Assembly: GCA_035290865.1 (NCBI GenBank)
Contig: DATDTM010000047.1
Location: 14,127-78,126 of the forward strand
DNA: 64,000 nt
DNA from: Candidatus Nanoarchaeia archaeon
Lineage (GTDB): Archaea > Nanobdellota > Nanobdellia > Woesearchaeales > GW2011-AR9
Direction: 5' to 3'
The position numbers and the translations under genes are program-made. Below, one piece after another: positions 17,775-63,946 of the stretch. The number at the start of each line of letters is the position of its first letter. Within the stretch, counting starts at the first letter, position 1. The notes below the pieces were generated by a model. The model did not search any database. It had not been told where the DNA came from and saw only the letters and a program-made list of their open reading frames with translations.

Positions 17775-17960
17775 GATTATCTTATCTATTTCCGTACCAG
17801 TAATTCCTCCCCTTTTTGAACTATACCCCAGTAAACTTTAAATATTCCTCTTCTTTCTCTAGATTAAGTTAAGTCTAAATAAAGAAATATTAATATACTC
17901 CTAATCTTTATTTACTTAAAATAATCGATTTAAACAATCTAAAAGAAGAGGTAGATAAAA

Positions 17961-18860: not shown

Positions 18861-18862
18861 GG

Positions 18863-25582: not shown

Positions 25583-25948
25583 GGTAGTAGTGGCAGTTAG
25601 CTGAGGGTATTTATTGCCCAGGAAAGTCCGCCCACCAAAAACAGGCCACTCCTAGGAAGGAGAGGGAGAAATTCCCTGGCTCTGGCTTCAGAAACGACAC
25701 GTCCTGCAGAATGGGATGATATGGCGAAGTTCCTTGCGAAAGGAATGAGTTAACCTATGGACGTCTCTGCAGGGAACGATGAAACGGCGAACCCCTTGTT
25801 GAGATGTAAATTTCAAAGGGCTCTTAGAGATAATAGCCCTGCCGGTGCAAGTGCAGTTCTGCACGCTCAGTCGAATGCTAACCTAAGCCATCGCAGTCAC
25901 AGGTTGACTGTTTGGGCTTAACCAAAGGCGGCTTATGTCACTCTACCC
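25583..25948 (+). ncRNA. rnpB: RNase P RNA, archaeal type (candidate)
   Basis: ORF-free 550-bp gap containing the universal P4 motif cAGGAAAGUCCGccc near the 5' end and acAGgttgactgtttGGGCUUAacc near the 3' end (compare E. coli ACAGAAcCCGGCUUA); ends ggtag(t)agtggca at 25583 and tgtcactctacc at 25936 can form P1; followed by a T8 run. Confidence 0.55.
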
Positions 25949-44439: not shown

Positions 44440-44795
44440 TTGGCCTCTTTAGAGAAAACCTCTTCTATTTGTTTTTGTAAGATTATTAATTTATGCTCTA
44501 AAATATCCCATAATATCTCTAGGTCTAACTGATGATACTTATGAATAACCACGTTTCTAAAATCTTTAATTTCCTGCCAAGGGATGTTCTTATACTTATT
44601 CTTCATCTCTAGAGGTAATTGAGCAATTGCTTCCCCAATTATCTCTAAGTTACGGACGGTTGCATCAATAGTGATTCTGCTCTGTTTAAAATCTTCAAAA
44701 TCCATCTCTTGGATATATTCCTGTATCACTTCAATACTATCCAAGATGTCCTTAAGAAAAAAACTAGATTTGCGCGGCAATTTGTTTTCCCTCAA
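44436..44795 (-). CDS. HepT/HEPN (DUF86) toxin of a HepT-MNT toxin-antitoxin pair
   Basis: RNVVIHKYHQLD carries the Rx4HxY HEPN motif; 4-nt overlap with gpsA and 32-nt overlap with the upstream MNT gene. Confidence 0.7.
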   Translation of the reverse strand: MRENKLPRKSSFFLKDILDSIEVIQEYIQEMDFEDFKQSRITIDATVRNLEIIGEAIAQLPLEMKNKYKNIPWQEIKDFRNVVIHKYHQLDLEILWDILEHKLIILQKQIEEVFSKEAK

Positions 44796-45066
44796 GAATT
44801 TCTGATTTTAATTCTTCCCGAATTAGATTCGGTTTAATTAGGTCTATCTCTTTCTTAAAAATATTCTTCAAGAACAATTTTAAATGGACATAATCATCAT
44901 ACAGCCCCCGGCCAGGCATAAATTCTACTAAAAAGTCTAAATCGCTTTCTTTTTTAGCTCTATCTTGGGCATAAGAGCCAAAAAGAATGATCTTTTTAAC
45001 TCCATAGGACTTAATCTCCCTCTTATGTGCTTCCAATAGGGATATAATTTTTTCTTTGGTTAGCAT
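44764..45066 (-). CDS. MNT-type minimal nucleotidyltransferase antitoxin
   Basis: ILFGSYAQDRAKKESDLDFLVEF matches the GS....(x)n...DhD nucleotidyltransferase motif. Confidence 0.75.
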   Translation of the reverse strand: MLTKEKIISLLEAHKREIKSYGVKKIILFGSYAQDRAKKESDLDFLVEFMPGRGLYDDYVHLKLFLKNIFKKEIDLIKPNLIREELKSEILEGKQIAAQI

Positions 45067-45524: not shown

Positions 45525-46433
45525 TCAATAAATCTTCTTGATCCAAGTACCTAAAACTAATTGGTACTGTAAACTTTGTTCATATTCATAACTTAAATCC
45601 AAAGTTAAGGTAGTCATATAAGAATCCTGCCCTTTCAGGTAAGTCTCGCAGATCAAAAGCGCTTCCTGTTTTTGGTCAGTAAAGACGAATTTGGTTTCCT
45701 CATTGACAAAATTCTGAAAAGCACATTTCAGAAAATCTTCTCCCCCCAGCTGGGCTTGATTTAATTTCAGATAGCCGATTTTACTATTACTTCCGCTCCA
45801 ACTGCCTCCCCCGTTATTTCGCAGATAGAACCTAAATTCCGCTTTAGTTCCTCCAGCTAAGGGCATCACAATCTCTTCCATCTCTGAGACTGCTACTGGC
45901 GCGCCTTGGCCGGAATAAGATTTCTCCTCCTCCACTTTACAGCCGGAATCATAAACTTCATAAAGATTAGGGTTCAGACAGACTGAATCTGCAAATTCTA
46001 AAGTAGATTCATAGCTAGCTTTAACAAAAAAAGTATTGGAGTATTTTTCTGCATTTCCATATAAAGATCCGGCCAGACCATTAAACTCTAAAAAAGCTTT
46101 ATCCCCGGAAGGATTAATCAGACTTCTCCCCCCTAACTGATTGAAGGGCTGCTCAGTTGGATTAATCTGAAAATAACGATCATCTAAACCCACAATGCGC
46201 ACTTTTCCGTTGATTAAGTCATAAGCTGCTTGATTATCTAATTTAACTATCAGCTTGAATTCTGAATTAGGATACATTTTTTCCGGAGGAGCATTTTCCA
46301 GAAAGCTTAATTGTAATCCTCCATAACCTTGCTTGAAGTTATAAGTAGTTTGTTTTTCTCCGGGAGAGTCGCAGCTGAGGAGAAGGAAAGAAAAAACAAG
46401 TAAAGTAAAGTAAATCATTAGTTTAATTTTCAT
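45525..46433 (-). CDS. secreted lipoprotein-like protein, paralog family 1
   Basis: LLLSCDSP lipobox; clear similarity to the 16064 and 17961 products. Confidence 0.5.
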   Translation of the reverse strand: MKIKLMIYFTLLVFSFLLLSCDSPGEKQTTYNFKQGYGGLQLSFLENAPPEKMYPNSEFKLIVKLDNQAAYDLINGKVRIVGLDDRYFQINPTEQPFNQLGGRSLINPSGDKAFLEFNGLAGSLYGNAEKYSNTFFVKASYESTLEFADSVCLNPNLYEVYDSGCKVEEEKSYSGQGAPVAVSEMEEIVMPLAGGTKAEFRFYLRNNGGGSWSGSNSKIGYLKLNQAQLGGEDFLKCAFQNFVNEETKFVFTDQKQEALLICETYLKGQDSYMTTLTLDLSYEYEQSLQYQLVLGTWIKKIY

Positions 46434-48349
46434 TCTATATTCCCCACAATTTGTTCCAAATCTGAATCTGTTCCTGTTGTTCCATTAGCCATTACTGTTT
46501 TCTGACCTGAAGAAGAGTAAGTATGTTCAACAAATATAAATATGTTTTCATTTAAAGTTAAATTAGTTGGTAAAGTACTTTGAACAACATTTTCACTGGT
46601 ATCGAAAAACCAGTTAAAAGTATTGGGGTAAATAGCCACATTTCTCATAAAGAAACGGAAAGCTGAATAATGAGATTGGTTAGTAAAGAGTAAAGAGGTA
46701 TTGTAAATATCTACTTCCAAAAGCCCATCTACTGCAAAACTGCTGAAAGAAGTAGTATTAAACAATAATACGCCATTAGTATAACTAAATAAAGCACAAG
46801 AAGTACCTAAACAATTAGCCCCATTATTAACTATTTCCAAGCTATCTGTATTATAACCCCCCTGTCTCTTAATTTGGTCTACAAATCCAAAGTTTAAATT
46901 CTTTAAAGTGAAATTTGCGCTAGAGTTTATCTTAGAGTTACTGCCAAAAGCAGAGGTATTCAAAGCAATAGTATTATTCCCGATAAAGAGATTATATCCT
47001 AAACCAATTTCTCCGTCCAGATCCATATCTTTCAAAAGACCATTATCACTAGTATTAATCCATCTAATTTCCCCATAAGAATTATTGTAGACTAAATAGT
47101 TAATATAACCGCTTCCAGTAAGGTCATAAATCTCTGGGGTATTAATATAATTAGCAGAGAGATGGTTATTTAAAAGAAGATTATCTCCTGAATTCATTCT
47201 TAAATAAATTCCGTAACCGCCGTTTCCGGTAGTAATGATGGTATTATTGTTTAAAATATTAAAATTAGAAGCAGTTCTTAATTCAATCCCTGGTGCGCCG
47301 ACAGCACCGGTAGTAACAACATTGTTGGATAAACTGCTAGAGGAAGAATTCATCAATCTGATACCATTAGCAGTGCTGCCGCTAGTAGTAACATTGTTCC
47401 CAAAGATATTTGTAAAATCAGATTGATTGTTTAAAAACATACCATTACTTAAAGCACTAATTATAGTAATAGTATTATTCAGAATTGTTCCGTTCGCAGC
47501 ATGATTAAAATAAACTCCGTGCTTATAAGAAGTAGAAATATTGCCCTCCTGGATGTTACAATTCTTAATCGTAACATTATCAAAACCGATATTTCCCACC
47601 CCATAACCTAAAGTTCCGCCAATAGAATAATTAATTAAATAACCCTTACAATCTAAAACAATGTTATTAACGCCAATAGTAAAACAAGTTCCACTGGAAT
47701 TAATCTTCTGGGTTAAAGTATAAATTGCCCCCGTTGTATCTAAAGTTCCGCATGCAGACTGGTCTGGATCAATATATGCTTGAAAGTTCTGTCCGGAGAG
47801 GGAAAAAGTAAATTGATTATCGCTATATTTAGGAGCCTCGTAAGATATTTTTATTGCAAAAGGTTTGCTGGTATCTATTTGTGCAGGAGTTTTAGTGAAA
47901 CCATAAAACTTTTTCTTAGTAAAAGTATGAATTTGTTCAACTGCTTCTAATTTTCCATCCATACCTTCTTGGACAATTATATCTGTGTAAGTTTCAGGGA
48001 CAAGATTAAATTGATTTGAGTACATTACAGTTTTGTTTTTGATCACTTCTTTTTCAAAACTAAATTGAATTGCCGGGTTGTTCAGAATTGGCTTAATTGC
48101 ATTCTGATTTTCAATTTCAAAAATGGCTTCGCAACTCTTCCAGCCATCATCTACTGCATCAGGTTTCCAGATGCAGGAGATATACGGTTTAGTAGAAGTA
48201 ATTATATTAGAATAATTAGAATGTTTATAACCAAGATTAAATACTTCCTGTCCTTCAAGAATTACTGCAGGCAGAAAATCTTCTGCTAAAACAAACATGC
48301 TCATCAAAAAAAGAGCAAATACTATTCCAAGATATATTTTCTTTACCAT
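46430..48349 (-). CDS. secreted right-handed parallel beta-helix repeat protein
   Basis: Signal peptide; repeated N/G/T-rich ~22-aa units (GNNVTTSGSTANGIRLMNSS..SNNVVTTGAVGAPGIELR..NNNTIITTGNGGYGIYLR) typical of PbH1 beta-helix repeats. Confidence 0.55.
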   Translation of the reverse strand: MVKKIYLGIVFALFLMSMFVLAEDFLPAVILEGQEVFNLGYKHSNYSNIITSTKPYISCIWKPDAVDDGWKSCEAIFEIENQNAIKPILNNPAIQFSFEKEVIKNKTVMYSNQFNLVPETYTDIIVQEGMDGKLEAVEQIHTFTKKKFYGFTKTPAQIDTSKPFAIKISYEAPKYSDNQFTFSLSGQNFQAYIDPDQSACGTLDTTGAIYTLTQKINSSGTCFTIGVNNIVLDCKGYLINYSIGGTLGYGVGNIGFDNVTIKNCNIQEGNISTSYKHGVYFNHAANGTILNNTITIISALSNGMFLNNQSDFTNIFGNNVTTSGSTANGIRLMNSSSSSLSNNVVTTGAVGAPGIELRTASNFNILNNNTIITTGNGGYGIYLRMNSGDNLLLNNHLSANYINTPEIYDLTGSGYINYLVYNNSYGEIRWINTSDNGLLKDMDLDGEIGLGYNLFIGNNTIALNTSAFGSNSKINSSANFTLKNLNFGFVDQIKRQGGYNTDSLEIVNNGANCLGTSCALFSYTNGVLLFNTTSFSSFAVDGLLEVDIYNTSLLFTNQSHYSAFRFFMRNVAIYPNTFNWFFDTSENVVQSTLPTNLTLNENIFIFVEHTYSSSGQKTVMANGTTGTDSDLEQIVGNIE

Positions 48350-51300
48350 TTTGTCTGGTTGATTAAAGTTTCGACTTGTTTACTTATTTCATCTGGAGTT
48401 AAAGTCTGATTTTCCCAGATTACTAAAACATTATTATGTAATCCGACGATATTTGTATAAGCATCGCTTCCGGTGAGGAAATTAAAAACCCAGGTTTGGT
48501 TTCCGGAAATGATTACTTTATCGAATCTTCCGCTTTTCTGGGTATTGTTAAGGTAGCGGACATAGAGCTGTTGGCTAGTATAAGTTTGGTAAGCAATTAA
48601 TATAGAATCAGCAGCACCTTGTTCAATAGCGGTTCTGGCTTCTGATTCATTAGCAGAGATTTTGAAAGTCCAGTTGTAAATTATAAAATTACTTTCTTTA
48701 GCTAAGTCTTTTATCTGGATAGAAAGATCATGTTCTCCCCCAGTCAAAGGAATAGCTGGAGTATAAGTAGTGGTGGTAGTATTGATAAAAGGTGCCACTA
48801 CATCTCCATCAAGTTGTAATATTACTGAAGAAGTATTTACGCCGGAATATGAATCATAATAATTTATTACAATAGTGGGTGTATTATTTCCAACTATAGT
48901 ATTATTAGCTGGAGTAATATTAACTATCTCTGGAGCAAGAGTATCTATCTTAAATACAAAATGAGTTGTATTTCCTAGGTTCCCCACTTTATCTTTAGCT
49001 AGGGAATGAAGATACCAAAATCCATCAGTTAACCCAATAGCATTTTGAGACTGGTTATTTTGGGAAACAGTTCCTCCAATACCAGTGATATTAATTAAAG
49101 AATCCATTGTCCATAAATTCATGATATCTGGGGTGGTTGATTCGTTGTTATTAACTACATAATAATATCCGTAAATGCTTGAATGAATATCTGTTGCTGA
49201 AAAGTTAAAGATAGGAACACTAAGATTATACCAATCATTGTTATTAGGATGCGTGGGCGAAGTTATAGTTATCATACTGGGAGCATCAGAATCTATATAA
49301 ATGTTAACTGGGTTAGACCAAGTGCTATTATGCTGTAAAGCATCCTGAGCATAAATTCGGAATGTATGGCTACCAGAAGTAACATTTACATGATAAGACT
49401 GACTATTTCCTAAACTAAACAAATTCCCATCAAGTTCTCCAACATAACTTACCACTCCGCTGCCTATATCCCCAGGATTAGTCCAAGTATAATAAGGACT
49501 ATTATGTTGGGTCCAATTATCTCCAGAATGCAATTCTTTTATTATAGGCGTACCTGGATTAGAGGTATCAATATATAAACTTACATTTCCGGAATGACCT
49601 AAATTACCGGGATTATCCACTGCCCGAACATAAATAGTATGAACCCCTTCTGTTTGTGGTAGAGTAATAAAAGAAGTATTTAGTCCTATATTGTTCCAAC
49701 TTCCAGCGTCAATCCGGTACTCGTAATGGTTAATTCCATTAGTGTCCTCCACTGGATTCCATGAGATTGTATGGATATTTTGAGTACTCCAATTATTTGG
49801 AGAGGAACTTAAAACTGGTGCTAACGGAGGGATTACATCTCCCACAAAGATACTTTTAGTATAAATGTTATTAGACTCATTTGACTCAATAATAATATTA
49901 TAATAATCCGCATTAATTGTAATGGTGTGATTACTATAAGTAGAATTCCAGCTAAAATAGGTAGAGTTAGTAGAAGATTTGGTTACAGATAAGTTCTGTT
50001 CTTGAACATTACTATTTACTGTAAATCTTACCACAAAATTATTGGCATCTGTACCTCCTTCGTTACGGATAATTATATTTACTCCTAAAACCTCTGGTTC
50101 AGCTGGATTTAGCGGGGTTTGAATAATATCACTTGCATCTAAAGTTAAGTCTGCTTCTGCAGGATTAATCGTTATCGGTTGCTGTCTATTGTCTTTTAAA
50201 TCGGAAACATCTGTTGCTGTAACATTAATCTGATAAAACCCTGGTGCTGCAGGAGCAGTAGTAAACCCCTCATATAAATCAGAAGAAGAATTGTAAGTTA
50301 ATAAAATAAGAACATTATTAACCGTTGCATTCACTGTACTAACATTAAGATTATCAGTTACGTTCACTTTTAAAGACAAGTTAGCATTAACATAACTAGT
50401 ATCAACAATGATAATCTCGTTAATCTGGGAAGTTGTTTTATCCTTCACAAGAACAGATAAGTTTAATTCATTGTTATTTTCGTCTGATTCAGTGATATTA
50501 CCTAATGGGTCTACTCTAAGGGTTAAAAGATGTTGGCCGTAATATGCAGGCCATAAGAAATAAGCGGTATTACTTGCATCTGAAAGAATATTTAAGCTTT
50601 TGTTTTGATATAATATGCTGTCAACAAACAATTCCAAAGTGAAATTATTTACTCCAGTCCCACCATCGTTATGAACAATCACGGAAAGATTGGTTAATGT
50701 TCCGTCAGTAAGAGGAAGCGGAAAGAGATGAATATCATTGCTAAATAAAGTTAAATCCGGGATTGTTGAGTAAATTTCAAGCGATATTTTTTTCGTTGTC
50801 GCTAGGCCGTTAATATCTTTAGCCGTGATAATTAACTCGTAAATTCCTGCATTAGGTGCAGTAAAAGTATTTTCGTATAAAGCGGAGGTAGAGTTATAAT
50901 CTAATACTAAAGTAGTATTACTAATTGTAGCTGTTACTACGCTAATATTAACATTATCAGCTATATTTACTTTAATTGTGGATGGAGTTCCTTCTACGGA
51001 ACCATGCAGAATTTCGCCTATAATGGGGGGAGTAACATCAAGAATAGAAATATTAATACTTGCTTCATTATTTAACTCGTTTGCTTCAGAAATTATATTA
51101 GAGGCATCAGTCTTAATCGTAATGCTATGATTCCCATAAGTTGTTGTCCAGTTAAATTGCGTAGAACTATTTGATTGGTTCGCTATCGATAAAGTTTTAC
51201 TCTGATCAGAGATGTCATCAATTAATAGTTCAACAATAAAATTATTTGCTGGTTGATCACCTTTATTGTAAACTGTTGCATTGAAAATTAACAACTGATT

Positions 51301-54300
51301 TTCATACAACACTTTTTGATCGTAATGGATATCGCTAGAAGTCAAAGTCAAATCCGGGTCCTCACTATGAATTGAAAGACCACCAGTAGATTCTGTAGCC
51401 CCCGACGTAGAATTAGTGGCGGTTAAATTAACCCAATCACTAGCCATCACGTAAAGAGTATATTCTCCAGGACTACTTGGAGCAATTAGAACTCCTTCGT
51501 ACCATCCGGAAATCTGATTATAAGTTAGAGTTATTGATTGAGTTGAGAAAGTAGCATTAACTTTAGTTAAATTAATATTATCAGTGGCATTAACTTTAAC
51601 AGTAAGATTACTGCTTACATTAGCGGGGTTAGGAATAATGATAAGGTTGTGAATCTTCGGAGAGATATTATCTGAAACGGAAAAATCGACAATGATATCT
51701 GAAAGATGGATAATGCCCTTACTAGACGTAGTGAAATTCAAAGGGACAAGACAATTATTGTTCTGGTCCGGGGTACAAATAGCTAGGTAATCATTAATCG
51801 CAGTAATGTTCAGATCAACTTCTTGCGGTGAATTTGATTCATCCAAAGTTCCAGCGTATTGATAATCAATAGTTCCATCATTTCCTGTATCTTCATCTAT
51901 GCTGGTTGGATATCCAAAAGTAATGAAGAAATTATCATAATCGACGTAACTGATATTATCATTTTGATAAGCAGGACAATAAGTAAAGTTCAGATTTGTG
52001 TCTAAAGTGGTATCGTTTCCTATTGTAATCTCCGAAGCACTACAGAATACATAAACTTTATCTTCAATATCAGAATTGTTAAATATTCCTAATCTATTTT
52101 CATTACCAGTTAAAGCAAATTTATGAAAGTTATATGCTGGAGAAAGCCCGCTGTATAACACATCATCAAAAGAGATACTATTTGAAACATTCCAAAGATG
52201 TTCACTGATTGAAGCTGAACCTTCATTACCACCTCCCAAACAAGACCCACCACAGGAGTTACAGCCACCACTGCTACCTCCATTACCTTTATCTCCATTA
52301 AAAGTAGTGATGTTTTTTGTTTTGACTTCTGTTGCAGTAAATATAGAATGCGATTTTTCAGCGTTAACTCCATTACCACCTTGACAATTCCAACCAGCAT
52401 CATTACTATCAGAAGCCCCTCCATTGCCCCCATTACCACCATAATAATTTAAACTGGTTGAATTAATGATGATAATAGATGATGATTTATTTCCATAGAG
52501 ATAAATAGTGCCACGACCCCCAATGCCTCCATTTCCTCCAATAACCGTTCCAGTATTAACACAAGAACCTCCGGTTTGATAAGCATGTCCCCCATTCCCT
52601 CCTTTTCCCCCGTAAGAATTAAGAACTGAATTATCAATTTTTAAGTTATTTTTGATGTAAAGTTCTATTTTCCCCTCATATCCATTCCCTCCGTTATCCC
52701 CATAATGAGTTCCATCAGAAGGGCAAGTTTCCTCAAAATCAGAACCTTGAGAACCTTGGTTACCATACCCATTAAGTGTTGCATTTGTAATATTGATCCA
52801 TCCGTAGGTGGTATTTAACCGGATTAAACCGGGTGACCCTTGGCCATTAATTATTGTATCATGCACCCAAATAGAAGCATTATTTGTGTCGATGTAATTA
52901 CCGGAAAGAGTGCCATTACAATTAATAATATTTCCTTCAACCTCAACGCAGCCAGAGATTGCCGTGGGATCTAAGACAAAAGTATATCCTAACAGATTAA
53001 GAGTAACATTAAACTTAAATTCTTCTGCACCAATGGGAATATCTTCCAGACTATAATCTAATAACTCGCTTTTATTGACGGTTAAGTCTAAAGTATCTTT
53101 GATATTTCTCTCTTTAAAACTATATCTTTTAGAATTATCTAAACTGATATTAAAGTCTGTCTCACCAAGATTAAATAAAGTATTAGTAATATTTATTCGG
53201 ATTATACAGTTCTGTAAACAATGATAATATTCCTGGTCTGTTTCTATCTTTAGATACTGGCTGAGATCAGCAGAATTTCTATAGATTATCTCTTTACCAC
53301 TCAGCTGGACTGCATTAAAATTTAAGTGAGCAAAGCTAATGTTCTTTTGTTTATTTCCCTCAGCAAAACCGGGGTCTTCTTTAGTTAAGACAAACGAATA
53401 TTCTTCACCTATAGTTAAATTCATTAATTCCTGCCATGTTCCTAAACATTGGCTATTAGAGAAATCCCATTCTTTGCATTTGTAAAGAGTTTCCCCTTCT
53501 GCGATGGAAGTAATCCTCACAGAATCAAATTCCAAATTTTCAGGGTTAACGGCATAAACGTCTTTAAATTCTAAGTCTTCAAAAGAATCTATTTTTGGAT
53601 AGCTTAAACCCAATTCTTCATTCTCATTAAGTCTTATATTTTTAAATTCAATCTTAATCTCTGGGTTATCTTCTGGAATAATAGTTAAGTTATAAACCAC
53701 ATTTTCAGGTTCATCTTCTAGCTCATCTTTAGAATATAGACTAAAACCAATTAATTCTCCATTCTCATCTTTAACTTTAAATTTATATTTTAGAGGAGTT
53801 TTATCTATTGGTTTTTGATTAATTTTAATTTCTAAATTAACTGAATTTGGAGAGATTACTTCATCTCCGGAATAATTTGCAATAATAGTATAAAATCCTG
53901 GAATTCTACTAAATGTATCCCAGTTTATTTCTGCTTTCCCTCCAATATCAGTAATATCTGAACCCAAATACTCATCTGCATAAAAGTCTATTTTTTGGTC
54001 TGGAATCGGGGTTTGATTATTATCCTTCAGGAAAGCTTGGATATTAATTATCTCCCCAACAATAGCAGTTAGTTTATCTATTATTAAAGTTAACGCAGTG
54101 GAGATACTAGTGGATTCATATATTGGTTCAGCCTCATTAATGGGCAACCCCAGGGGTAGATTAATAATTGCTCCTGTTGGAGTCTGAATAGAACCATTTA
54201 CTGATTGAGTAACATTTTCCTCTAACTGATTCTCAATAGGAGTTAGATTTGTTGATAGTTCTTCACTTTCTACCGGAATTCCAAGAGTATTATTTACTGT

Positions 54301-54384: not shown

Positions 54385-57300
54385 TTTTGAACTCCGTATC
54401 CTGAAATATTCAATTTAGCATTAGTAACATTAGCTGTTTTCGGTAATTTAATATAGACCACTTGGCTGCCTGCACCGGCATAAGTAAGATTTTTAATGTA
54501 TGAACCATCTGAAAGCGTAGTAAAGGTTAAACTTCCTGGACCGACAACCGGTATAATTACATTAGCGGTAGAACTTACATTATGGCTATCTGTAGCCTTT
54601 AAAGTAATTTTGTGAAAACCAGAAGAAAGATTGTTTAAAGTAAAAGCGTTCCCGGTCCCGATTACCCCATCACGGTCAGAAATCCAGACTAAAGAATTTC
54701 CGGAAAGATTACCATCTTCATAATCTTGAGCAGTGCCTTCAAAAGTAATGTTCCAGCCTAAAGAATAGACTGAGCCAGGAACTGGAGAAACGATGGTAAC
54801 ATTCGGCGGAGCAGAGATTACAGTTACATTTACAGAGACATTAGCACTTTGGTTATCATTATCTACTGCTGCTAAAATAATTTGATAAGATCCAACTGTA
54901 AAATTAGACCGATTAAATTCTGTCCCCGAACCTAAATTACCATTTAAAGAAGATTTCCAGGACAGAGAATTTCCGACTAAAGAACCGGTTTCAGGATCAG
55001 TTGCTATGCCCTTAAAAGTGAAGAGAACTCCATTAATTATCTGTTGATTATTTGTAGGAGAGATTATCGATACTATCGGTGGTTGAGGCTCTAAAACCAC
55101 AAATTGAGTCTGGTCGAGCCCAGTAAGGCCATAACTATCCATTACTGAAGCAGTAATCAAGTGTGCACCCTGAGATAAGGCTTTAATAAAAGATAAGCCA
55201 GTTCCAAGATACCCATCAAGACTGGAAGTCCAGTTTAATTTTGAAGATAAATCTCCATCATGCGGGTCGGTGGCAGTTCCATTAAAAGTGATGCTGTTTT
55301 CGGTATAATAAAAGGTGGCATTATTTTCTGGTAAAGTAATATTAATTATAGGAGTAGATTCTTCAATAATAATGCTTAGAACACTAACTGCACTTACCTG
55401 GCTAAAGTCGGTGGCATTTAAAGTGAGGTTATGTACCCCAACACTTAAAGAGTTAGTAAAAATGGTTCCGCCGCTACCTAAATAACCGTCGATACTTGAA
55501 GTCCAAATAAGAGCGTTACCCATTATGTTCCCATCTTCAGGGTCTAAAGCTTTACCATCCAAATAAACTGTTGCTCCTTCCGGGAAAGCCTGGCTGTTAG
55601 AGGGAGAATTTATGGTTATTACTGGTGGTTGTGAAGCCAGAACCAAAATAATTACCTGATCAACGTCTTTATTTCCATCAGAATCTTCCACAGTTAAATA
55701 AATAACCTGATCTCCCAAACTAAGGTTAGCATAGATTAAAGAGCCGCTACCAAGATAACCATCTTTACTGGAAGTCCATTCATACAAAGATTCATTTAAA
55801 GATTCATCTTTATAATCCGTGCCATACCCTGTAAGAATAGTTGGCAGATTGACATAAGCTGGTGCCCCGTTAGGTGGAGCGACAATCGAAGTAGTAGGCT
55901 TAGGATTAACCACATTTACTAACTCGTTGATTTGGTTGTTAAGTTCGTTTAGTTCACTGGTAACATCAGTGTAATCAACCTCAACACTAATATTACGTAT
56001 CCCAATAACGGAAAAGTTAGTTAAGATGCTGATTAAAGCAGTTTCGTTGCTGGCAAGATTAGTTATTTCCTTTTCCCCGATCAAATACTGGGCAGTATAA
56101 TCATTGGGAGAAGTATAACTCTCCATATATTTTAATTTAAAATTACTGGCATTAGCCGGCCCCTCATTTCTAACTGCAACTGTAATATTTAGAATTTCAT
56201 TAGCATCCGGGGTTAGGGAAGAAAAGCCTAAGGCAAGAGGAACTAAATCCGGTTTATTGGGGTTTTTTAAAGTGGCAAAGTAAACTGAATTATTTTCTGC
56301 GGCATAAGAATAAAGAGTGGCATTTTCTATCAATTCTGCAGTATGATTGCCTAATTCTCCTTCCACTTCCGGGTTAACCTTAGTTAATTCCACACCGCCA
56401 TAAACTGTATAATCCCACCAATTCCAGCCATTATTATAATACTGGAAAGAGTACAAATATTGCCAGGCTTTGGTTTCATAATAGCTTTGATCAAAGTTTT
56501 TGTAAAGGCCGGAGAGATTGTTAGAATCAATTAGCTTATTGTAAATTATATTTTCTCCCGGCTGCTTTTTATACCATTGAGCTAGGGCAATAGAAGCGTG
56601 GGCTCTTCGCAAGGCTTCATATTTTGGGTCAACATTAACTTTTATTTCAGCTTCAGCCGCAATCTCAGCTAAGCCCGCTTCAAGGTCAGCTTTGAATTGC
56701 GCTAATTCAGCCTGGTAGCCGCCGCCATTTACCCAGACTGCGTCCACTACAGAATTAACTTTTAGGGTGGAATTAGTGATAAATATTTTGCACCCGGTTC
56801 CATTTGCAGTTACGGAATCTGAACTGATCCAGACCCGGGCATAGAAACCAGGCCATTTGCTGGGATCGCCAACAACATTCTCTTCCCAGTTGTTAACCAA
56901 ACTTTCAACTAAATTCTGGCTTTGGCCAAAATGATCCATTTTGAGTTGGACGTCGGCATCAAACATAATCTGGCCTAATTCCGTGTGGGATAAGTTACCA
57001 TCAACTTTAGAAACATCACCCACTTTTCCTGCGAAACCCGGGCCAGGCTTAGTATCCATGGTCACCCACATTTTGTGATTAGGGACAATTAAGCTGGTTA
57101 AGAAAGCGTTAGTAGCTTGGACGGTAGCGTTAGTGATATTGATCAGAACATCAGTTGTGTTAGCTTCTTTTCCTTTCATCACGGCGACAAAACCTTCTTG
57201 AGGATCGCAGGTAGAGATATAGTTGAGATTAGCGGAAGTGAAGTTGATGCCGCCGGTTTTTTCTGCAACGTCTTCAGGGGAAGTGTCTATAAAATTTGTA

Positions 57301-58334
57301 GTAAGATCAAAACCACCATACTTTCCAGAGACTGAACTGGCATAAACTTCTAGAGTCCAATTACCTGCTTGCATTTGTGGTTTATTTATCGTCAAACTTT
57401 TAGTGTAGGAAGTGCTCAAATCAGAAGCAACAACAGTACCGCTGGGGTTGAGCACTCTTAATTGTAAGTAAGATAATGAAAAGAAAGGGTCAACCTTGAA
57501 TCCTTCTTCTTGCCCGTTAAGTGTAAGGTAGAATTTCCAGGTCTGACCGTTAGCAATTCGGGCGGAAAGAGATTCTCCTATTTGAATACTCTGGGCAAGG
57601 AAAATGTTGTCGTAGTAATAATCGAACATCCACTCCCAGACTTTCCCTGTTAGCGCCCAGTATTGGGTGCCCCATTGAGTCATATAAGTTCCATCACCTT
57701 TTGATTTATTTGCTACCTGACCAGCTATATATGCAGCATTGAGAATATTTTCAGTTCCTGTCCCGTTGTAAACTGCATAGTAATCCCAAGTATAGTCTAC
57801 TGCTTGATTTCCGTCGTTGGTGTTAGAATTATTTTTATACATTTGGTCGCAGGTGAAGTCAACGACATGGGCGCCGGTTTCTTTCCACTTTTTTGTATTT
57901 TCAGTTTCATATATTTTAATAGTATACCACGGAGCTAATTTTGTTGCCATTGCACCTGCTCTAAGACTTTCTGTTGGCCATAAGATAGAAATCGCTGGTG
58001 CCCATTCATTTGGAAGAACATCTTTAACATAAGTTTTGAAGTTCAGTGTTTGTTTTGAAAAACCAGGTGTTCCATCAATAATTCTATTTTTAATGTAAAT
58101 ATCCAAACCTAATTGAGAACCATTACCATAATTGTTAACTAAACTAGGGCAATCTGCTTTTTCTGCATTAGTAAAACCGGTAATTGCTACAGTTATGTTT
58201 ATGGGGAATTGTTCGATATTAGCATGAGCAAATTTAATCATGAGAGATAGAACTACAACAAAAAAAATTGTTCTAAACCAACGTCTCTTCAAATAGATCA
58301 TATATTTCCTCTTTTTAGGGGAGCCTTGTACCAA
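54381..58334 (-). CDS. large (1317 aa) surface protein: N-terminal SpoIID/LytB-like domain, CARDB domain, five ~90-aa Ig-like repeats
   Basis: [32 protein letters not shown] parallels the SpoIID/LytB consensus [34 protein letters not shown] parallels TTHCQVY; repeats PPVITINSP...DPEDGN...[12 protein letters not shown] five times; [14 protein letters not shown] (CARDB). Confidence 0.65.
   Translation of the reverse strand: [1317 protein letters not shown]
57059..57270. repeat. ~210-bp near-identical dispersed direct repeat, copy 1 (inside the 1317-aa gene)
   Basis: gtcacccacattttgtgattaggga[c/t]aattaagctggttaagaaagcgttagt...gaagtgaagttgatgccgccgg occurs at both loci. Confidence 0.8.
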
Positions 58335-59028
58335 TCCTTATAATATATCTCTTATTCACAATTTTTTTTAAGCCATTTTTTGTGATAAATCCAGTTATCC
58401 CCATTTTTCCACTTGCTTCAACTTTAATATCATTTGCTAGTTCTAATTGTACTTCTTTTGTATTCTTTTCAAAATTCTCCCATTCTTCAATTCTAAAATG
58501 AATAAACACCGGGACAAATTCCTCTTTCTCTACCCTTTCCCATAATTGATCTTCAATCAGAGGACCGACAAGTATTCCCATTTTTTCTCTTTTCTCATCT
58601 AAAACAATTTGGTCTTCTATCATAAAACCCAACTCTTGTTGACTCTGTTGAAAATCTGGTGCTTGTGCAATAACTATCTCTTTCAGAACTTCCATCTTAT
58701 ACTCTTTCTCCGAAACCCCTTCATTCACTTCTCCCGGTAAGTCCTTCGCTTTACTCTTATTAATCATTCCAAAGATTACATTTCCATAAGTTTTACTTTG
58801 CTCGGTATCGTTAATTACTAGACCTTTCGCTTTCAATTTCTCCAGAGTTTCATTAGTAATAGAATCTACTTTAACCGCAACCGAGATGATTTCACCGGTT
58901 TTAATTTCCTGCGGAATTTCTTTCACTGCACAGCCGGCGAGAAATAATATGCTAAGCAATAGAACAAATATAATACACCTTGCTTTTTTCATCTGTTCAC
59001 TCATTTTATTTTTGAATACTTCTGACAT
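58315..59028 (-). CDS. lipoprotein-like protein B1 (classic LAGC lipobox), partner of the SpoIID-like cassette
   Basis: ILFLAGCAV; paralogous to the 59765-60472 product (KGLVINDTEQSK / KGLIVSYETSEN, ...PVFIHFRIEEWENF / PAYIKFRMEYWGDN). Confidence 0.5.
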   Translation of the reverse strand: MSEVFKNKMSEQMKKARCIIFVLLLSILFLAGCAVKEIPQEIKTGEIISVAVKVDSITNETLEKLKAKGLVINDTEQSKTYGNVIFGMINKSKAKDLPGEVNEGVSEKEYKMEVLKEIVIAQAPDFQQSQQELGFMIEDQIVLDEKREKMGILVGPLIEDQLWERVEKEEFVPVFIHFRIEEWENFEKNTKEVQLELANDIKVEASGKMGITGFITKNGLKKIVNKRYIIRIGTRLP

Positions 59029-59796
59029 TTATAAAACCTCTTTTCTATCAATAACATAGAACTTCCATGTTTGCCCTTTGGCAATCTTAGCAGAGACGGC
59101 ATCACCAATCACCATATTCTTCGCAAGAAAAGAATTGTTATAGTAATAGTTGAGGATATATTCCCAAGGCTTGCCGGATTGAACGAGATATTGAGAGCCC
59201 CATTGGCTCATTTGCAGCCCAGGATATTCTACGATTTCTTTTTTCCAGATACCGTCTGTGCCTTGGTAATGTAAGGCTTCGAGGACTTTTTCTGTTCCGC
59301 TGTAATTCTTTTCAGCGTAGTAAGACCAAGTGTCATCGACAGATTGGTTCGTTTTTAGTTGAGTGGTTTCGTCGTACATTTGGTCGCAGGTGAAGTCTAC
59401 TACATCGGCACCGATTAATGACCACTTTTGTGGTTCATCTACTCTATACCAACCATATAATTTAACTGCCATCGCACCTGAACGAAGGCTTTCTTGATTC
59501 CAAGTAGTATTCCATTCGTTATCCAATACCCTTTGAGTATATAATTTCAAAGGAACAGTATCGACAGTAACAGTATGATTTTTGATATATTGTTCCAAAC
59601 CATCTCCGTGAGTAGCTTCAAGTTTGGGACAATCTGTCTTTTCATCCCAAGAAAGATTTGTGATAGCTACTTTTATACTGTCTGGAAAAGTTAACAAATT
59701 TGCAGAAACATCTATGGATAAAAATAACACAATTCCTACCACTAGTACAGCTATAGCTCCTTGCTTAATTATTACAAGTTTTGGTTCCATTTTCAA
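59029..59796 (-). CDS. stand-alone secreted SpoIID/LytB-like domain protein (paralog of the N-terminus of the 1317-aa protein)
   Basis: [44 protein letters not shown] and YYYNNSFLA are all shared with the 54381-58334 product; nucleotide similarity to 57560-57900. Confidence 0.55.
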   Translation of the reverse strand: [255 protein letters not shown]

Positions 59797-60472
59797 ATAC
59801 AGTGCAATGAGGTATACTCAAGTCTCTCCAGCCAATATCTAATATACATTCAACATTTCTTAGTTTATTAACTCCTTCTTGAGTTATCTCTCCTTTAAGA
59901 GCCCCTCTCTCATCCTCTTCTAATTTAAAATCTGCTTTACTTAACCGTGAATTTATTTCATCAAGACAGATTTTACTATTATCACCCCAGTACTCCATTC
60001 TAAATTTTATATACGCTGGAGCGTACTCTTTATCTTTTAATTCTTCTAACAATTTTTTTCTTATATAAGGTCCAACAGTAATATTCTCTTTAGCTCTAGC
60101 CTCATCAATAATATTCTGCATATCTTTGTCCGTTAACTGCTGGCTTTCTTTCTTCTTCACCACTTTAATCTGAGAATTATTTTGTAATTTACCAAACTCC
60201 GTTTTATTAATCTCGCCGGTCAAAACTAAGTTTTCACTTGTTTCGTAAGAAACTATCAATCCTTTCTGTTTCAAATCTTCAATAACGCTGGCAGAAACAT
60301 TCTTATCAACAATAACATTAACTTTTATCTTATCTGGACTTACGGATGGTTCTACCGGAACTTCTTCTTTAGCACATCCAATAATAATTAGAATCAATAG
60401 TACTAATAATATCCCAATAAACAAACTTTTTTTTCTCATCCTACACCCCCCTTCTTTCACTTTAGTAAACAT
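59765..60472 (-). CDS. lipoprotein-like protein B2 (IIGC lipobox), paralog of B1
   Basis: See B1; follows the stand-alone SpoIID-like gene in the same order as in the first module. Confidence 0.5.
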   Translation of the reverse strand: MFTKVKEGGCRMRKKSLFIGILLVLLILIIIGCAKEEVPVEPSVSPDKIKVNVIVDKNVSASVIEDLKQKGLIVSYETSENLVLTGEINKTEFGKLQNNSQIKVVKKKESQQLTDKDMQNIIDEARAKENITVGPYIRKKLLEELKDKEYAPAYIKFRMEYWGDNSKICLDEINSRLSKADFKLEEDERGALKGEITQEGVNKLRNVECILDIGWRDLSIPHCTVFENGTKTCNN

Positions 60473-60479
60473 TCAATCT

Positions 60480-60704
60480 TTATAAAGCCTCTTTACCACT
60501 TAAAGATATGCTTTTGATAATTGGATTCTCTCGCACAAAAGTAATCAACAAAACATCTCCGCACGGCGATTCAAAAACCATGGTCACCCACATTTTGTGA
60601 TTAGGGATAATTAAGCTGGTTAAGAAAGCGTTAGTGGCTTGGACGGTAGCGTTAGTGATATTGATCAGAACATCAGTTGTGTTAGCTTCTTTTCCTTTCA
60701 TCAC
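60480..60704 (-). pseudogene. truncated duplicate of an internal segment of the 1317-aa surface protein gene
   Basis: [30 protein letters not shown](I/V)PNHKMWVTM is identical in both; the DNA at 60580-60790 matches 57059-57270 with about 3 mismatches. Confidence 0.5.
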
Positions 60705-60790
60705 GGCGACAAAACCTTCTTGAGGGTCGCAGGTAGAGATATAGTTGAGATTAGCGGAAGTGAAGTTGATGCCGCCGGGAGCGGCTGCTG
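60580..60790. repeat. ~210-bp near-identical dispersed direct repeat, copy 2 (gene fragment)
   Basis: As copy 1; divergence begins exactly at the repeat borders. Confidence 0.8.
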
Positions 60791-60879
60791 GGTTACTAGC
60801 ATCTGATGCTTTCGGAGTTATTCCCAGCTTGAAATCAGCGAAATCTTTTTCAATTTTCTTTCCGGTGACATTAATCTTT

Positions 60880-62664
60880 CTAGCTCACTACCTCATTAAA
60901 ATTTATCTCCACGCTCTTACTGATCAGATAATCATAATCTAAACTGGCCAGGAAAGTTTTCGGCACCCAATCTTTAGTATTTTTCAATTCCACAGGATAA
61001 TCTTTCACCTGACATTGGGGCCTGGAAATTATTTTCTTATACCCGGAAGCATCGATATTGGTCTCGTAGAGACATTGAGAATTATCTACTACAAAACCAG
61101 GCAGCTCAATCTGAAATCGTTTTACTAATAAAATCTTTCCCATCCCCACATTTTCAATATTGGAGATTAAACTTAAAGTTTTAAAGGGCTTGTTTTCGAT
61201 TATGGAATCTTTCTGTACATGCCCTAGATCAAAATTGATCTTAGCAAATTCTTTGGGCGCTCTGGATTCTTTGATCGTAACGATCTTATTTATTTCCGGC
61301 ATTAAAGCTTTTTTCTCTTCAGGAGTTTTATCTCCGATAAACGCTCTCTGTAACAAAGACTGGGTATTCAAATCTAATAATTTTGCAGAAAATTCTAGAT
61401 TATAACTAGCATTAAGCACTTTTCCTTCCGGAGGATAGCATAAGAAAGTATTGCCTAATTCTTCTTCTTTAAATTCAATTGCTGGAGAGGTGCTTGGCTC
61501 AATCCTGCCTAAGAAACTCTCTTTAGAAATCTTATCCGTAAAATTACAATACATCTCCGCTTTAATCACTAATTTTCTAGGATTCTTTATTTTCAGCTCT
61601 ACCGGAAAGGGCAGATTCGCAGCATAAAATTGGGGGAAATAATCTTTGTTTATGACTAATTCTGCGCTGGTAGGAATTTTGATAGTAGGATCAATCACTC
61701 CTCCCACCATTAAAGAAACTTCTTCTTTCTCTTTTTTCTTTTCAGCAATGCATGTTTCAAATTCCGGTGTACCCTCTTTCTTTTTCTCCATTTCAGTACA
61801 GCTATAACTCAATTCAGAATATGCTTGTTTCTCTTCTACACAGCCCTCAATATTAGTATATTCTCCTTCTATTAAACATTTTAAGTTCGACCAGGCAGGA
61901 TTTTCTTTTTGGGGCAATTGTTCTCTTAATCTCGCCTGAGCTTCCTCAAATTCTGTTGCGCTGGGCAATAAAGATTGGTCATAGCCTAGATTAGGAATGC
62001 TCGGAGCTACGAAAACAAAGATCAAGTACATTATTCCCACTATTCGAGTTAAATTTATAGCCACATTAGCGAACTTGCTCTCGCTGGCCTCTGCAGGTAA
62101 AGTTAATAAGCCAAAGAAAGCCCACCAGGGCATGAATAGGACTAAACTTTCCATCAGCGGAGTAATAGGCAGGCTTAAATTTTCCGCTAAGAAAGCAATT
62201 AACCCAATATCTAAAAAAAAGAAAATTACTGGAATAAAACCTAACAATTCTGGTTTAAGGCTCTGTCCTTTGGAAAAGACTCCAAAAATAAGTGAAATAA
62301 TTAATATTCCAGCTCCGAAATAAAGCAGGAATTCTGGGTCATAATTTCCTCCAAATAAAAAGTACCAGATTACGAATATTAACATCGGAATTAATATTGC
62401 GCTACGATTCTTTTCAGTTTTCTGGGCTAGAGCATATCCCGCTAAGATAAACAAAGTCAAAGAGAAAACAAAAGTGATTGCCGATGCTCCTCCCGTAGTC
62501 AAACGCAAAATAAAATGGATTACTCCTAGAACCACCATCATCCAACTCAAGTTTTTGGCTGCTCCGCTCACTGCTCCTGCCGCTTCGCTGGCGCCAGCAG
62601 ACTTTGCTGCTGCTCCTACCTCTCCAGAAGCTGCAACTTTCGCTGCCTCACCAAAAAGTGTCAT
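60880..62664 (-). CDS. polytopic membrane protein (~8 TM) with large C-terminal extracellular domain, hypothetical
   Basis: Ala/Gly-rich N-terminus, 7-8 hydrophobic helices, then ~330-aa Cys-containing soluble domain. Confidence 0.5.
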   Translation of the reverse strand: MTLFGEAAKVAASGEVGAAAKSAGASEAAGAVSGAAKNLSWMMVVLGVIHFILRLTTGGASAITFVFSLTLFILAGYALAQKTEKNRSAILIPMLIFVIWYFLFGGNYDPEFLLYFGAGILIISLIFGVFSKGQSLKPELLGFIPVIFFFLDIGLIAFLAENLSLPITPLMESLVLFMPWWAFFGLLTLPAEASESKFANVAINLTRIVGIMYLIFVFVAPSIPNLGYDQSLLPSATEFEEAQARLREQLPQKENPAWSNLKCLIEGEYTNIEGCVEEKQAYSELSYSCTEMEKKKEGTPEFETCIAEKKKEKEEVSLMVGGVIDPTIKIPTSAELVINKDYFPQFYAANLPFPVELKIKNPRKLVIKAEMYCNFTDKISKESFLGRIEPSTSPAIEFKEEELGNTFLCYPPEGKVLNASYNLEFSAKLLDLNTQSLLQRAFIGDKTPEEKKALMPEINKIVTIKESRAPKEFAKINFDLGHVQKDSIIENKPFKTLSLISNIENVGMGKILLVKRFQIELPGFVVDNSQCLYETNIDASGYKKIISRPQCQVKDYPVELKNTKDWVPKTFLASLDYDYLISKSVEINFNEVVS

Positions 62665-62749
62665 CCCATCTTCCTCTTTTTTTATATGTTAAACCTATTT
62701 TAAAAATAAAAACTAAAAAAGTAATCTAATCGGCCCCTAAATACCATAA

Positions 62750-63946
62750 CTACTTCACTAAATCCACCCGAAGTTCCTGTACTTCAATGGTTTTATCCGG
62801 CTTGACTTTCAGGGCATTATTACCCTGGACAATATCATCACTCAAGTCTAAGATGTAAGTTACCTCTTTGGTATCAAAATTCTTGGCATGGCCGTTAAAG
62901 ATTAATTCTCCATATTTGCTGCTGACTACGTCCACAAAATTTAAGGTAGCCCGTAATCTTAACTTTTCATCCACCACGTCCTGATACTGTTCGTAAGATA
63001 CCTCAAAATAATAAGTGGGATATTCAACCTCTTTTAATTCTGATTCGATTTTGATATTAGAGATAACATAAGTTCCTTTACTGGTCAGGAAAACAATCTC
63101 ATTCTCTCCAGAATAAACCAGGCTGGGAGAAAATTCTAAGGGCACCATGGACAACTCACAGTCAGGAATGGCAGAATAAATTTCGTTGCCGTTAATTAAC
63201 ACTTCCAGCTTCCCCGCTTTATTTGTATCACAGTCTGGCTTGAATTTTAATCTTATTTTTTCCAAGTTTTTCTTCTCTGTTTCCGAAACTAAGAAAAGAT
63301 TCTTGGAAGCTTGAGATTCCAGATTAGTCACATCAGAAACTACTTTCAGTTTTTCTACCTGGATCGAATTAGTTTTCCAGAAAGCTGCTCCCACTCCCGA
63401 AGTGCTGAACAACAATTCATTATTTTCTTGGATGGAATTTTTAGGAAGATTGACTACTAACGATTCTCCTGCGGTGACCTCTGAACTGAAAATTTCATCT
63501 CCATTTAAACTAACCAATAAATCTCCTTGGGCAGATTTTACGGTAAAGCTTAACAAGAAATCCTCGGACTGGTCTAAACTGGGCACCGTAAACTTAAAAT
63601 TGCTTTGTTCTTCAGAGAAAGCGCCTTTTTTCATGCTGGCTACATTCTTTTCCGCTAGAATCTTACTTTCAGTTTTAGTAAAGATAGTAGTTACCGGAAG
63701 CGGGTGTTCAATCTCTTTTTGATTCAAAAAATCAATCTTTCCCGGAGAAACTTTCAATAGATTAATCTTGACTTTGGCCTCATCGATCACTTTAGGGGCG
63801 GTGCTGGTAGAAGTAGAACTTTCTCCTAATAGTTCCGCTCTTTCCTGAGGCGGGATTAAAACAATAAATCCCACTAATAAAGCGGCAATGATTACCAATA
63901 AGATGGCTGCTCCCGCAGCTGCCTGACCTCTTTTACTTTGGTTCAT
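62750..63946 (-). CDS. type IV pilin-like (class III signal peptide) surface protein
   Basis: MNQSKRGQAAAGAAILLVIIAALLVGFIVLIPP fits the archaeal prepilin signal: basic residues, KRG cleavage-site-like motif, hydrophobic helix; ~360-aa beta-rich C-terminal domain. Confidence 0.5.
   Translation of the reverse strand: MNQSKRGQAAAGAAILLVIIAALLVGFIVLIPPQERAELLGESSTSTSTAPKVIDEAKVKINLLKVSPGKIDFLNQKEIEHPLPVTTIFTKTESKILAEKNVASMKKGAFSEEQSNFKFTVPSLDQSEDFLLSFTVKSAQGDLLVSLNGDEIFSSEVTAGESLVVNLPKNSIQENNELLFSTSGVGAAFWKTNSIQVEKLKVVSDVTNLESQASKNLFLVSETEKKNLEKIRLKFKPDCDTNKAGKLEVLINGNEIYSAIPDCELSMVPLEFSPSLVYSGENEIVFLTSKGTYVISNIKIESELKEVEYPTYYFEVSYEQYQDVVDEKLRLRATLNFVDVVSSKYGELIFNGHAKNFDTKEVTYILDLSDDIVQGNNALKVKPDKTIEVQELRVDLVK

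Follow-up and report, generated by a model that had tools for sequence, protein, structure and literature searches.

An inserted block of surface-protein genes with SpoIID/LytB-type domains within a conserved envelope cassette of a Woesearchaeota-type archaeon

We analyzed a 64-kb stretch of contig DATDTM010000047.1, hereafter the window, in which nine consecutive minus-strand genes encode predicted surface proteins. These genes form a composite region. The outer three (g398, g594, and g302, each named after the length of its product) make up an envelope cassette that is conserved among Woesearchaeota-type DPANN archaea, and the inner six lie in a 14.5-kb block that we conclude to be a recent, lineage-specific acquisition by recombination. 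Two proteins of this block carry a domain of the SpoIID/LytB family. The reading that we favor, as probable rather than secure, is that a strain-variable surface toolkit directed at bacterial peptidoglycan was inserted into the conserved cassette; the block thereby suggests, without proving, that this archaeon interacts with bacteria.

An earlier note on this DNA had described nine consecutive minus-strand genes with products of up to 2013 aa, and all nine open reading frames (ORFs) were recovered at exactly the coordinates it gave. In ascending order they encode proteins of 302, 639, 2013, 1317, 237, 255, 235, 594, and 398 aa. Because they are uninterrupted and 100% identical in at least six independent assemblies from the Rifle aquifer (JGI, ENA, and Logan contigs), these genes are real, and not the frameshifted pseudogenes against which the note had cautioned; moreover, ORFs of 1,317 and 2,013 codons cannot be a product of chance in DNA of 35% GC. 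Kyte-Doolittle hydropathy, the only measure applied here, shows a hydrophobic N-terminal segment in 9/9 products. The note had further read three gene overlaps as the sign of a single operon. Those at 48343/48349 and 54381/54384 stand, whereas that at 58315/58334 exists only if g1317 starts at a TTG; gene callers using ATG give a product of 1306 aa and no overlap. The start of g255 is similarly movable, with a gene caller taking an ATG two codons downstream of the TTG start. Packing is also uneven, as a 407-bp spacer (60473-60879) that holds a gene fragment separates g594 from g235. The single operon, or one island, gives way to two units, namely the cassette, which is contiguous in 8/8 relatives, and the insertion of the inner six genes.

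Besides an RNase P RNA of the archaeal type, the window encodes aIF5B, SecDF, and RFC and Cbf5 proteins that contain inteins, and NCBI labels the identical proteins "Candidatus Nanoarchaeia archaeon" and those of relatives "Candidatus Woesearchaeota archaeon". These features agree with the note's small-genome archaeon and support a DPANN archaeon of the Woesearchaeota type; its source is groundwater. The products are plausibly surface proteins, given their signal or anchor segments and the enrichment of glycosylation sequons in the giant ones; of the proposed envelope and host-interaction apparatus, the surface location is therefore plausible, whereas host interaction is still conjectural.

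The context of the cassette was compared in seven members of the g594 family (loci L013-L017, L019, and L020) and an independent contig (L018), with orthology assigned by BLASTP. The gene order in these relatives is a divergent Pelota gene, a g398-like gene (~400 aa), a g594-like gene (~600 aa), a g302-like gene (~290-311 aa), GpsA, glutaredoxin, and a GH3 protein. A g302-like gene directly follows the g594-like gene in 8/8 relatives, the two being adjacent or overlapping by 1-4 nt. Orthologues of g398 always adjoin the Pelota gene, with an identity of 94% for L017 and of 53-65% for L013-L016, L019, and L020; those of g302 are 43-50% identical in L013-L016. The cassette is thus a widely conserved and wholly uncharacterized envelope operon of Woesearchaeota.

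The same synteny comparison, which the earlier note had called for, showed that the six inner genes are absent in 8/8 relatives, across a range of g594 identity from 37 to 91%. Closest to the present lineage is L017 (GCA_053531555.1), whose g594 shares 91% identity at the protein and 86% at the DNA level; L017 and L018 are collinear with the window from 62682 to 60889 and resume at 46378 (blastn). Between these points lie 14,510 bp (46379..60888), which hold the spacer, all six inner genes, and the replacement signal peptide of g302, in place of 90 bp of L017. The downstream junction falls inside the g302 signal peptide. The mature part of g302 (from Cys21) is ~94% identical to its L017 orthologue and the signal peptide is unrelated, giving 89% identity overall; the first 18 codons (46380-46433) are inserted DNA. 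At the upstream junction, the spacer contains a 201-nt direct repeat (60578-60778) of g1317 codons 362-428 (57056-57256), 98.5% identical to its source, which is a recombination scar. This copy was found by a repeat search, confirmed by blastn and translation, and is present in assemblies L001-L003 and L007-L012; a 73-aa ORF is annotated there by some gene callers. Several assemblies made independently run across both junctions with 100% identity. Composition also sets the block apart: GC content at third codon positions (GC3) is 0.24-0.32 for the inserted genes (0.34 for g255) versus 0.31-0.40 outside, and tetranucleotide correlation is 0.85-0.92 versus at least 0.955. Among the usual marks of a genomic island, the block therefore shows absence from relatives at a conserved site and distinct composition; mobility genes and flanking direct repeats or att-like sites were not found in the insert. 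Insertion in the present lineage is favored since repeated precise deletions in the relatives are far less parsimonious.

The 201-nt repeat causes contig breaks (e.g., L009 begins at 57144), and two independent assemblies, L004 and L006, both end at 60923, 35 nt ahead of the end of collinearity with the insert-free relative; such ends might arise if alleles that carry the insert co-exist with others that lack it. A 58-nt repeat, 83% identical, is shared by both SpoIID copies (59375-59432 and 57838-57895, the region coding for DFTCDQMY), and its exact 23-nt core could be a point of recombination between the paralogues. Contig L021 (ENA ERZ5996431 NODE_101278, 1,546 bp; protein P0002) is a mosaic that crosses the 58-nt and 201-nt repeats, joining the 5' part of g255 (100% identity), g1317 at 57895-57056, and the spacer with the g235 start at 60778-60440. 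As evidence of a live recombinant we set it aside as weak, given its 1.5x coverage and a first 273 nt of unrelated sequence; this contig may be a genuine recombinant or else chimeric.

Profile matches and structure-guided alignments place g255 and the N-terminus of g1317 in the SpoIID/LytB family, with the predicted catalytic residue conserved. The secreted, stand-alone protein g255 (59029..59796) matches Pfam SpoIID (PF08486) with 28.4 bits (cutoff 23.0), its domain spanning aa ~37-248 (59053-59688). The corresponding domain of g1317 (aa 27-270, 57525-58256) scores 21.8 bits, slightly under the cutoff, and shares 44% identity with g255 along 248 aa of the g1317 N-terminus (E 3e-56); two relatives, P0048 and L022, exceed the PF08486 cutoff. 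A profile of the g255/g1317 domains matches the structures 4RWR (SpoIID), 5TXU, and 9H68 (a cortex-lytic enzyme) in the Protein Data Bank (PDB). E94 of g255 (codon 59515-59517), equivalent to E110 of g1317 (58005-58007), aligns with E101 of Clostridioides difficile SpoIID (5TXU), the mutation of which abolishes activity (PMC6221140), and this column is Glu in 43/43 homologues. The C-terminal motif is also retained, as GLQMSQWGS in g255 (aa 196) and GTYMTQWGT in g1317 (aa 218), aligned to GHGVGMSQ[YW]GA of 4RWR and 5TXU. The strict conservation of the Glu and of the MSQWG motif argues for retained catalysis. A domain of this family, which is the sole enzymatic hint among the nine products, points to the bacterial wall as the likely target, rather than to an archaeal host. 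The earlier note had missed the SpoIID-like domains of g255 and g1317, together with the tandem duplication of a two-gene module and the composite nature of the region.

A word-based search with g255 returned only g255 itself and the mosaic protein, and an exhaustive HMMER profile search returned 1,734 cluster representatives, among which Woesearchaeal sequences number a handful. All neighbor clusters with a non-archaeal organism name (5/5) are multidomain proteins of Chloroflexota, annotated as SpoIID/LytB, amidase-enhancer domain, or hypothetical. These closest non-archaeal relatives (profile E 1e-39 to 1e-30; e.g., Tter_0441 of Thermobaculum terrenum, 814 aa) are likewise secreted and combine a SpoIID-like core with beta-sandwich modules (CarboxypepD_reg, fn3); they differ in being bacterial and in their other accessory domains, are not known to have an I9-like lipoprotein partner, and are themselves uncharacterized. 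The Woesearchaeal copies are monophyletic, with a g255-type and a g1317-type branch. Since Chloroflexota are the nearest named relatives and the Woesearchaeal copies form a single clade, the tree suggests one transfer from bacteria to archaea, which is the most likely route of entry into Woesearchaeota, followed by an old duplication.

The insert holds two copies of a two-gene module that pairs a lipoprotein resembling subtilase propeptides (I9) with a SpoIID/LytB-type domain. The first genes of these copies, g235 (59765..60472; lipobox IIIG|C) in copy 1 and g237 (58315..59028; lipobox FLAG|C) in copy 2, are paralogues with 32% identity (E 1e-21), and the two module copies diverged anciently. 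In g237, two I9-like alpha/beta domains are joined by long linking helices, the beta-alpha-beta-beta-alpha-beta fold matching solved subtilase propeptides. Pfam gave no match for g235 or g237, including to Inhibitor_I9, and the insertion block contains no subtilase. The g235/g237 family comprises 18 clusters, all from Woesearchaeota or Nanoarchaeia.

A g237-like gene also lies directly upstream of a SpoIID-like gene at four other loci (L022, L023, L026, and L029). In L022, the pair has a stand-alone SpoIID-like gene and stands beside housekeeping genes. In L023, from another Rifle Woesearchaeote (JGI 3300025308), the remnant of a g1317-like gene is followed by the pair and then, at 1925-5026, by a protein of >1,034 aa that combines an I9 propeptide with the D/H/S catalytic domain of a subtilisin. 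The latter arrangement indicates that the module travels with different giant secreted proteins. In L026 and L029, the SpoIID gene of the pair is truncated or degenerate. This recurrence at unrelated loci identifies the pair as a conserved two-gene module that has been duplicated, fused, recombined, and sometimes decayed.

The second SpoIID copy belongs to the first of three large proteins, whose modules largely bear out what the earlier note had predicted. Behind its signal peptide and SpoIID-like domain, g1317 (54381..58334) has a beta domain, an unassigned region (aa ~360-690), a CARDB domain (55929-56255), and five ~90-aa Ig-like repeats (aa ~808-1290, 54465-55913). The repeats had been recognized as Ig-like and match Pfam Big_7 (6e-8); the CARDB domain (35.8 bits, E 1e-8, cutoff 22.7) had not been listed. 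Pfam assigned no family to aa 265-700. The secreted, adhesin-like g2013 (48343..54384) contains the predicted glycine-rich region, with GGNGG/GGKGG motifs at ~50-aa periodicity (aa ~520-760, 52105-52827), and the predicted three CARDB repeats, arranged as three ~200-aa Ig+CARDB units (aa ~903-1521, 49822-51678; 116.8 bits, E 5.7e-34, cutoff 22.7) with CARDB-type matches in PDB (2L0D, 2KL6, and 3IDU). Its proposed FN3-like regions were not borne out: no match to Pfam fn3 (PF00041) appeared at E<=5, nor did one when the C-terminal segment was scanned by itself, and there the three modules (48685-49842) are Ig-like Big_13 domains (38.7 bits, cutoff 27). Pfam yielded nothing usable on the isolated aa 500-900. 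The third protein, g639 (46430..48349), whose stop overlaps the g302 start by 4 nt, is a predicted secreted right-handed parallel beta-helix of the NosD/PbH1 type, as proposed; it matches NosD (PF05048) with 34.4 bits (cutoff 23.6) over aa 250-425 (helix 47075-47602), and its flanking regions match no Pfam family.

Glycosylation sequons (N-X-S/T) number 85 in g2013 versus 41±5.8 in shuffled sequences and 43 in g1317 versus 19.5±4.1. This roughly twofold enrichment is limited to the giant proteins and is not seen in the three outer genes; the giant proteins are thus probably glycosylated.

Taken together, these features are consistent with a toolkit in which each part would have a role at the cell surface. 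The Ig and CARDB arrays would serve as glycosylated spacers and adhesins, and the second SpoIID copy would be presented on the CARDB/Ig-repeat stalk to which it is fused in the 1,317-aa protein. The SpoIID-like domains would bind the glycan strands of murein and probably cut them as lytic transglycosylases, the I9-like lipoproteins would tether or regulate the partner enzyme at the membrane, and the beta-helix protein g639 would bind or depolymerize a polysaccharide layer. With these parts the cell might attach to bacteria, feed on them, or consume the debris of their walls. In its most specific form, which we put forward as an unlikely but concrete possibility, the module would be a dedicated two-component device of a kind not described before: the I9-like lipoprotein would hold or activate a SpoIID-type lytic transglycosylase on giant glycosylated stalks and so open bacterial peptidoglycan. 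If true, the genome itself would give direct evidence that an archaeon lives or preys on bacteria, and that strains exchange the toolkit as a cassette within a conserved envelope operon.

Several points weigh against a toolkit directed at peptidoglycan. Domains of the SpoIID/LytB family can be non-catalytic amidase enhancers. The domain here is compact (~145-210 aa) and g255 scores 43.6 bits (E 2e-11) on the sporulation SpoIID equivalog TIGR02870, the cutoff of which is 234.75. The SpoIID gene beside the lipoprotein gene is truncated or degenerate in L026 and L029 and hence dispensable there. An assignment is lacking for approximately 40% of g1317 and for the N-terminal ~900 aa of g2013, and no known host is linked to the present lineage. 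The insertion, as opposed to repeated deletion elsewhere, is a deduction from parsimony and composition. Finally, canonical SpoIID cuts only peptide-free ("denuded") glycan and requires the amidase SpoIIP (PMC6221140), and searches of the nine proteins and their unassigned segments found no homologue of SpoIIP, SpoIIM, or an amidase.

In line with these points, the SpoIID-like domains might instead be glycan-binding or amidase-enhancer (LytB-like) modules, or act on another GlcNAc polymer, and thereby serve adhesion or the scavenging of necromass without any particular bacterium as partner. Candidates for this polymer are peptidoglycan debris in free form, chitin-like material, the wall of an archaeal host, or the cell's own glycans. 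We regard this account as rather unlikely but as a serious rival, and several observations fit it: the block offers no amidase partner to an enzyme that needs denuded glycan, the nearest bacterial homologues are themselves known only by their SpoIID/LytB or "amidase enhancer" annotations, and the SpoIID gene has decayed at two of the related loci. A signal-anchored, NagZ-like GH3 protein encoded 3 kb away, and kept in most relatives irrespective of the insert, would also fit amino-sugar salvage. What tells against it is that both paralogues have kept the catalytic Glu, invariant among 43 relatives, along with the MSQWG motif, as expected of retained catalysis, and that this group of archaea makes no murein itself.

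The origin of the block can likewise be explained in other ways. The nine genes could be one ancestral operon whose six middle genes were lost in relatives, as would agree with their shared orientation, their tight packing, in which the giant genes overlap their neighbors by 4-7 nt at either end, and the lack of mobility genes and target-site repeats. This is very unlikely, since absence of the block from all eight relatives would require many independent and precise deletions; nor would an ancestral operon predict the deviating GC3 and tetranucleotide usage, a g302 signal peptide unrelated to that of an otherwise near-identical mature protein, the gene-fragment scar at the upstream junction, or the presence of the module at unrelated loci in other Woesearchaeota (L022, L023, and L029). 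In our judgment, it is barely tenable that the block represents a provirus or some other mobile element, or that it is a chimera of the assembly. Beta-helix and Ig-repeat proteins do resemble phage tail fibers or depolymerases, the composition is unlike that of the flanks, g255, g1317, and spacer sequence are joined as a mosaic in contig L021 of low coverage, and two assemblies break at 60923, close to a junction. Yet none of the six inserted proteins matched a PHROG family (0/6), scans of IMG/VR found no relatives of g639 or of the SpoIID profile, and the Pfam scan detected no integrase, capsid, terminase, or transposase. We rejected a viral origin on the negative IMG/VR and PHROG results. 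Independent assemblies that cross both junctions without a mismatch speak against a chimera, and the sequon enrichment indicates adaptation to archaeal glycosylation.

The favored reading, an inserted toolkit directed at bacterial peptidoglycan, bears on the question of whether bacteria, and not archaea, are the partners of any DPANN archaea. To our knowledge, all cultivated DPANN archaea have archaeal hosts. Giant adhesin-like proteins are a hallmark of DPANN archaea, and giant proteins with murein-lytic domains of the GH23 type are the chief genomic argument for bacterial partners. Large extracellular proteins of the latter kind occur in small-genome Woese- and Pacearchaeota, and the published interpretation is that they bind or degrade bacterial walls (PMC8204110; PMC9723730); the class is GH23 in Vigneron et al. 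[quoted passage not shown] (2021; PMC8204110). Like g1317, these proteins (fam00969/GH23) are very large, secreted, and multidomain, with a domain that cleaves the glycan strands of peptidoglycan, and come from small-genome DPANN archaea. As judged from their published descriptions, they differ in the domain itself, which here is SpoIID/LytB (PF08486); none of the nine proteins has a Pfam match to SLT or another GH23-type family with E<=0.1. The present locus also differs in its conserved pairing with an I9-like lipoprotein, in two copies, and in being a strain-specific insertion. It therefore adds a second, independent peptidoglycan-targeting domain family, and what is new is this family, its fixed lipoprotein partner, and the strain-specific insertion site. 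No paper in the indexed literature links DPANN archaea with SpoIID, and homologues of SpoIID were absent from archaea in a survey of 2015 (PMC5898192).

With SpoIID of Bacillus and Clostridioides (4RWR, 5I1T, and 5TXU), the present proteins share the family, the Glu equivalent to E101, the G-x-G-x-M-S-Q-W-G motif, and an extracytoplasmic, membrane-proximal location. They are not orthologues of the sporulation protein of the SpoIID-SpoIIM-SpoIIP complex, given the TIGR02870 score and the compact core. They also lack the four-ligand Zn site of C. difficile SpoIID, of which one Cys alone aligns, and, unlike the engulfment machinery, they have no detected SpoIIP or SpoIIM partner and occur in an organism without murein or sporulation. 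The similarity to the pre-pro-form of the clostridial cortex-lytic enzyme 9H68, presumably SleC, is distant: positions 81-220 of the Woesearchaeal profile align to residues 240-377 (E 3.8e-5) with the Glu conserved, whereas that enzyme is germination-specific, has its own pre-pro architecture, and shares no context with the present genes. The SPEARE proteins of Nanohaloarchaeota are giant, mostly extracytoplasmic, and rich in adhesion domains, with a proposed role in host contact and expression evident from proteomics (PMC6642349). The present block shares with them the giant, adhesion-rich architecture, whereas their serine protease, laminin-G, and intracellular restriction-endonuclease domains were not found here and their host is an archaeon; the related locus L023 does have a giant subtilase after its SpoIID module. 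More generally, surface toolkits can be strain-specific insertions, which matters for host prediction from metagenome-assembled genomes, and g255 (255 aa) with the lipoprotein partners of 235 and 237 aa are small, clonable objects for tests.

The proteins of the conserved cassette have features of their own. The first, g398 (62750..63946), had been predicted to carry a class III pilin-like signal peptide, and this prediction held. The class III criterion is a FlaFind-type pattern of N-terminal basic residues, G or A at position -1, and a hydrophobic stretch of ~20 residues; the g398 N-terminus, ...SKRG|QAAAGAAILLVIIAALLVGFIVL, fits this pattern (aa 1-32, 63851-63946) and g398 is the sole class-III-like ORF in the window. 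Across eight orthologues, the sequence NK[RK][GA]Q-AAGAAVLLxIIAGLL...PPxERAELLGE is near-invariant at this end. A beta-rich domain of ~350 aa follows; g398 had neither a Pfam nor a PDB match. No prepilin peptidase or PilB/PilC-type gene was found among the window ORFs scanned or within 10 kb of the cassette in seven relatives.

The second protein, g594 (60880..62664), is polytopic, as the earlier note had it, with approximately six transmembrane segments by Kyte-Doolittle hydropathy (aa ~39-222, 61999-62550), then a Cys-rich helical linker and two beta-sandwich ectodomains (aa ~320-590, 60895-61707). Its 45 homologues are all unannotated proteins of Woesearchaeota or Nanoarchaeota with 26-91% identity (32-51% for nearly all non-identical full-length members), and eight Cys are invariant in the family. 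An AF2 model has a pLDDT of 77, rising to 88-95 in the C-terminal domains; Foldseek comparison of this model with PDB gave only generic tandem-Ig matches (TM ~0.1) and no specific known fold. The third protein, g302 (45525..46433), is beta-rich with a lipobox (LLLS|C). Pfam yielded nothing usable on isolated segments of g302 and g398. In a profile-profile comparison of the three cassette families, the C-terminal domain of g302 showed weak similarity to the last domain of g594 (E 1.2e-3, probability 19%), and g398 had no match.

Downstream of the cassette, GpsA, a bacterial-type NAD-dependent glycerol-3-phosphate dehydrogenase (43483-44439, minus strand), adjoins it in most relatives and was not seen at the L016 locus. 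The GH3 protein (41651-42793, minus strand) has an N-terminal transmembrane or signal segment and a NagZ-type beta-N-acetylhexosaminidase as its best NCBIfam match (79.9 bits, below cutoff), and could process GlcNAc-anhydroMurNAc-type products outside the cell. Its gene is syntenic in most relatives examined, with or without the insert, and is absent from the L015 and L020 loci. The locus is flanked on both sides by MntA/HepT (MNT-HEPN) toxin-antitoxin pairs, one at 44436-45066 (minus strand) and a second upstream of Pelota (L001 80-897); L017 has only an MntA-like gene at the downstream position.

Elsewhere in the window, five co-oriented plus-strand genes at 15352-20386 (208, 329, 209, 299, and 507 aa) match no Pfam family; four of them begin with lipobox-like signals (VVS|C, LTS|C, LTA|C, and STG|C), and they may form a second surface-lipoprotein cluster. 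A secreted 562-aa protein (11383-13071, minus strand) contains He_PIG, Big_9, and Big_7 Ig-like domains and a thrombospondin type 3 repeat. ARAGORN found no tRNA gene in the 64-kb window, and the sole Rfam match was the archaeal RNase P RNA (25583-25947). LAGLIDADG homing-endonuclease domains occur in the inteins of the RFC small subunit (20399-23437, minus strand) and of the Cbf5/TruB pseudouridine synthase (30836-33298, plus strand); Cbf5 is intein-free (~310-315 aa) in L015, L016, and L019.

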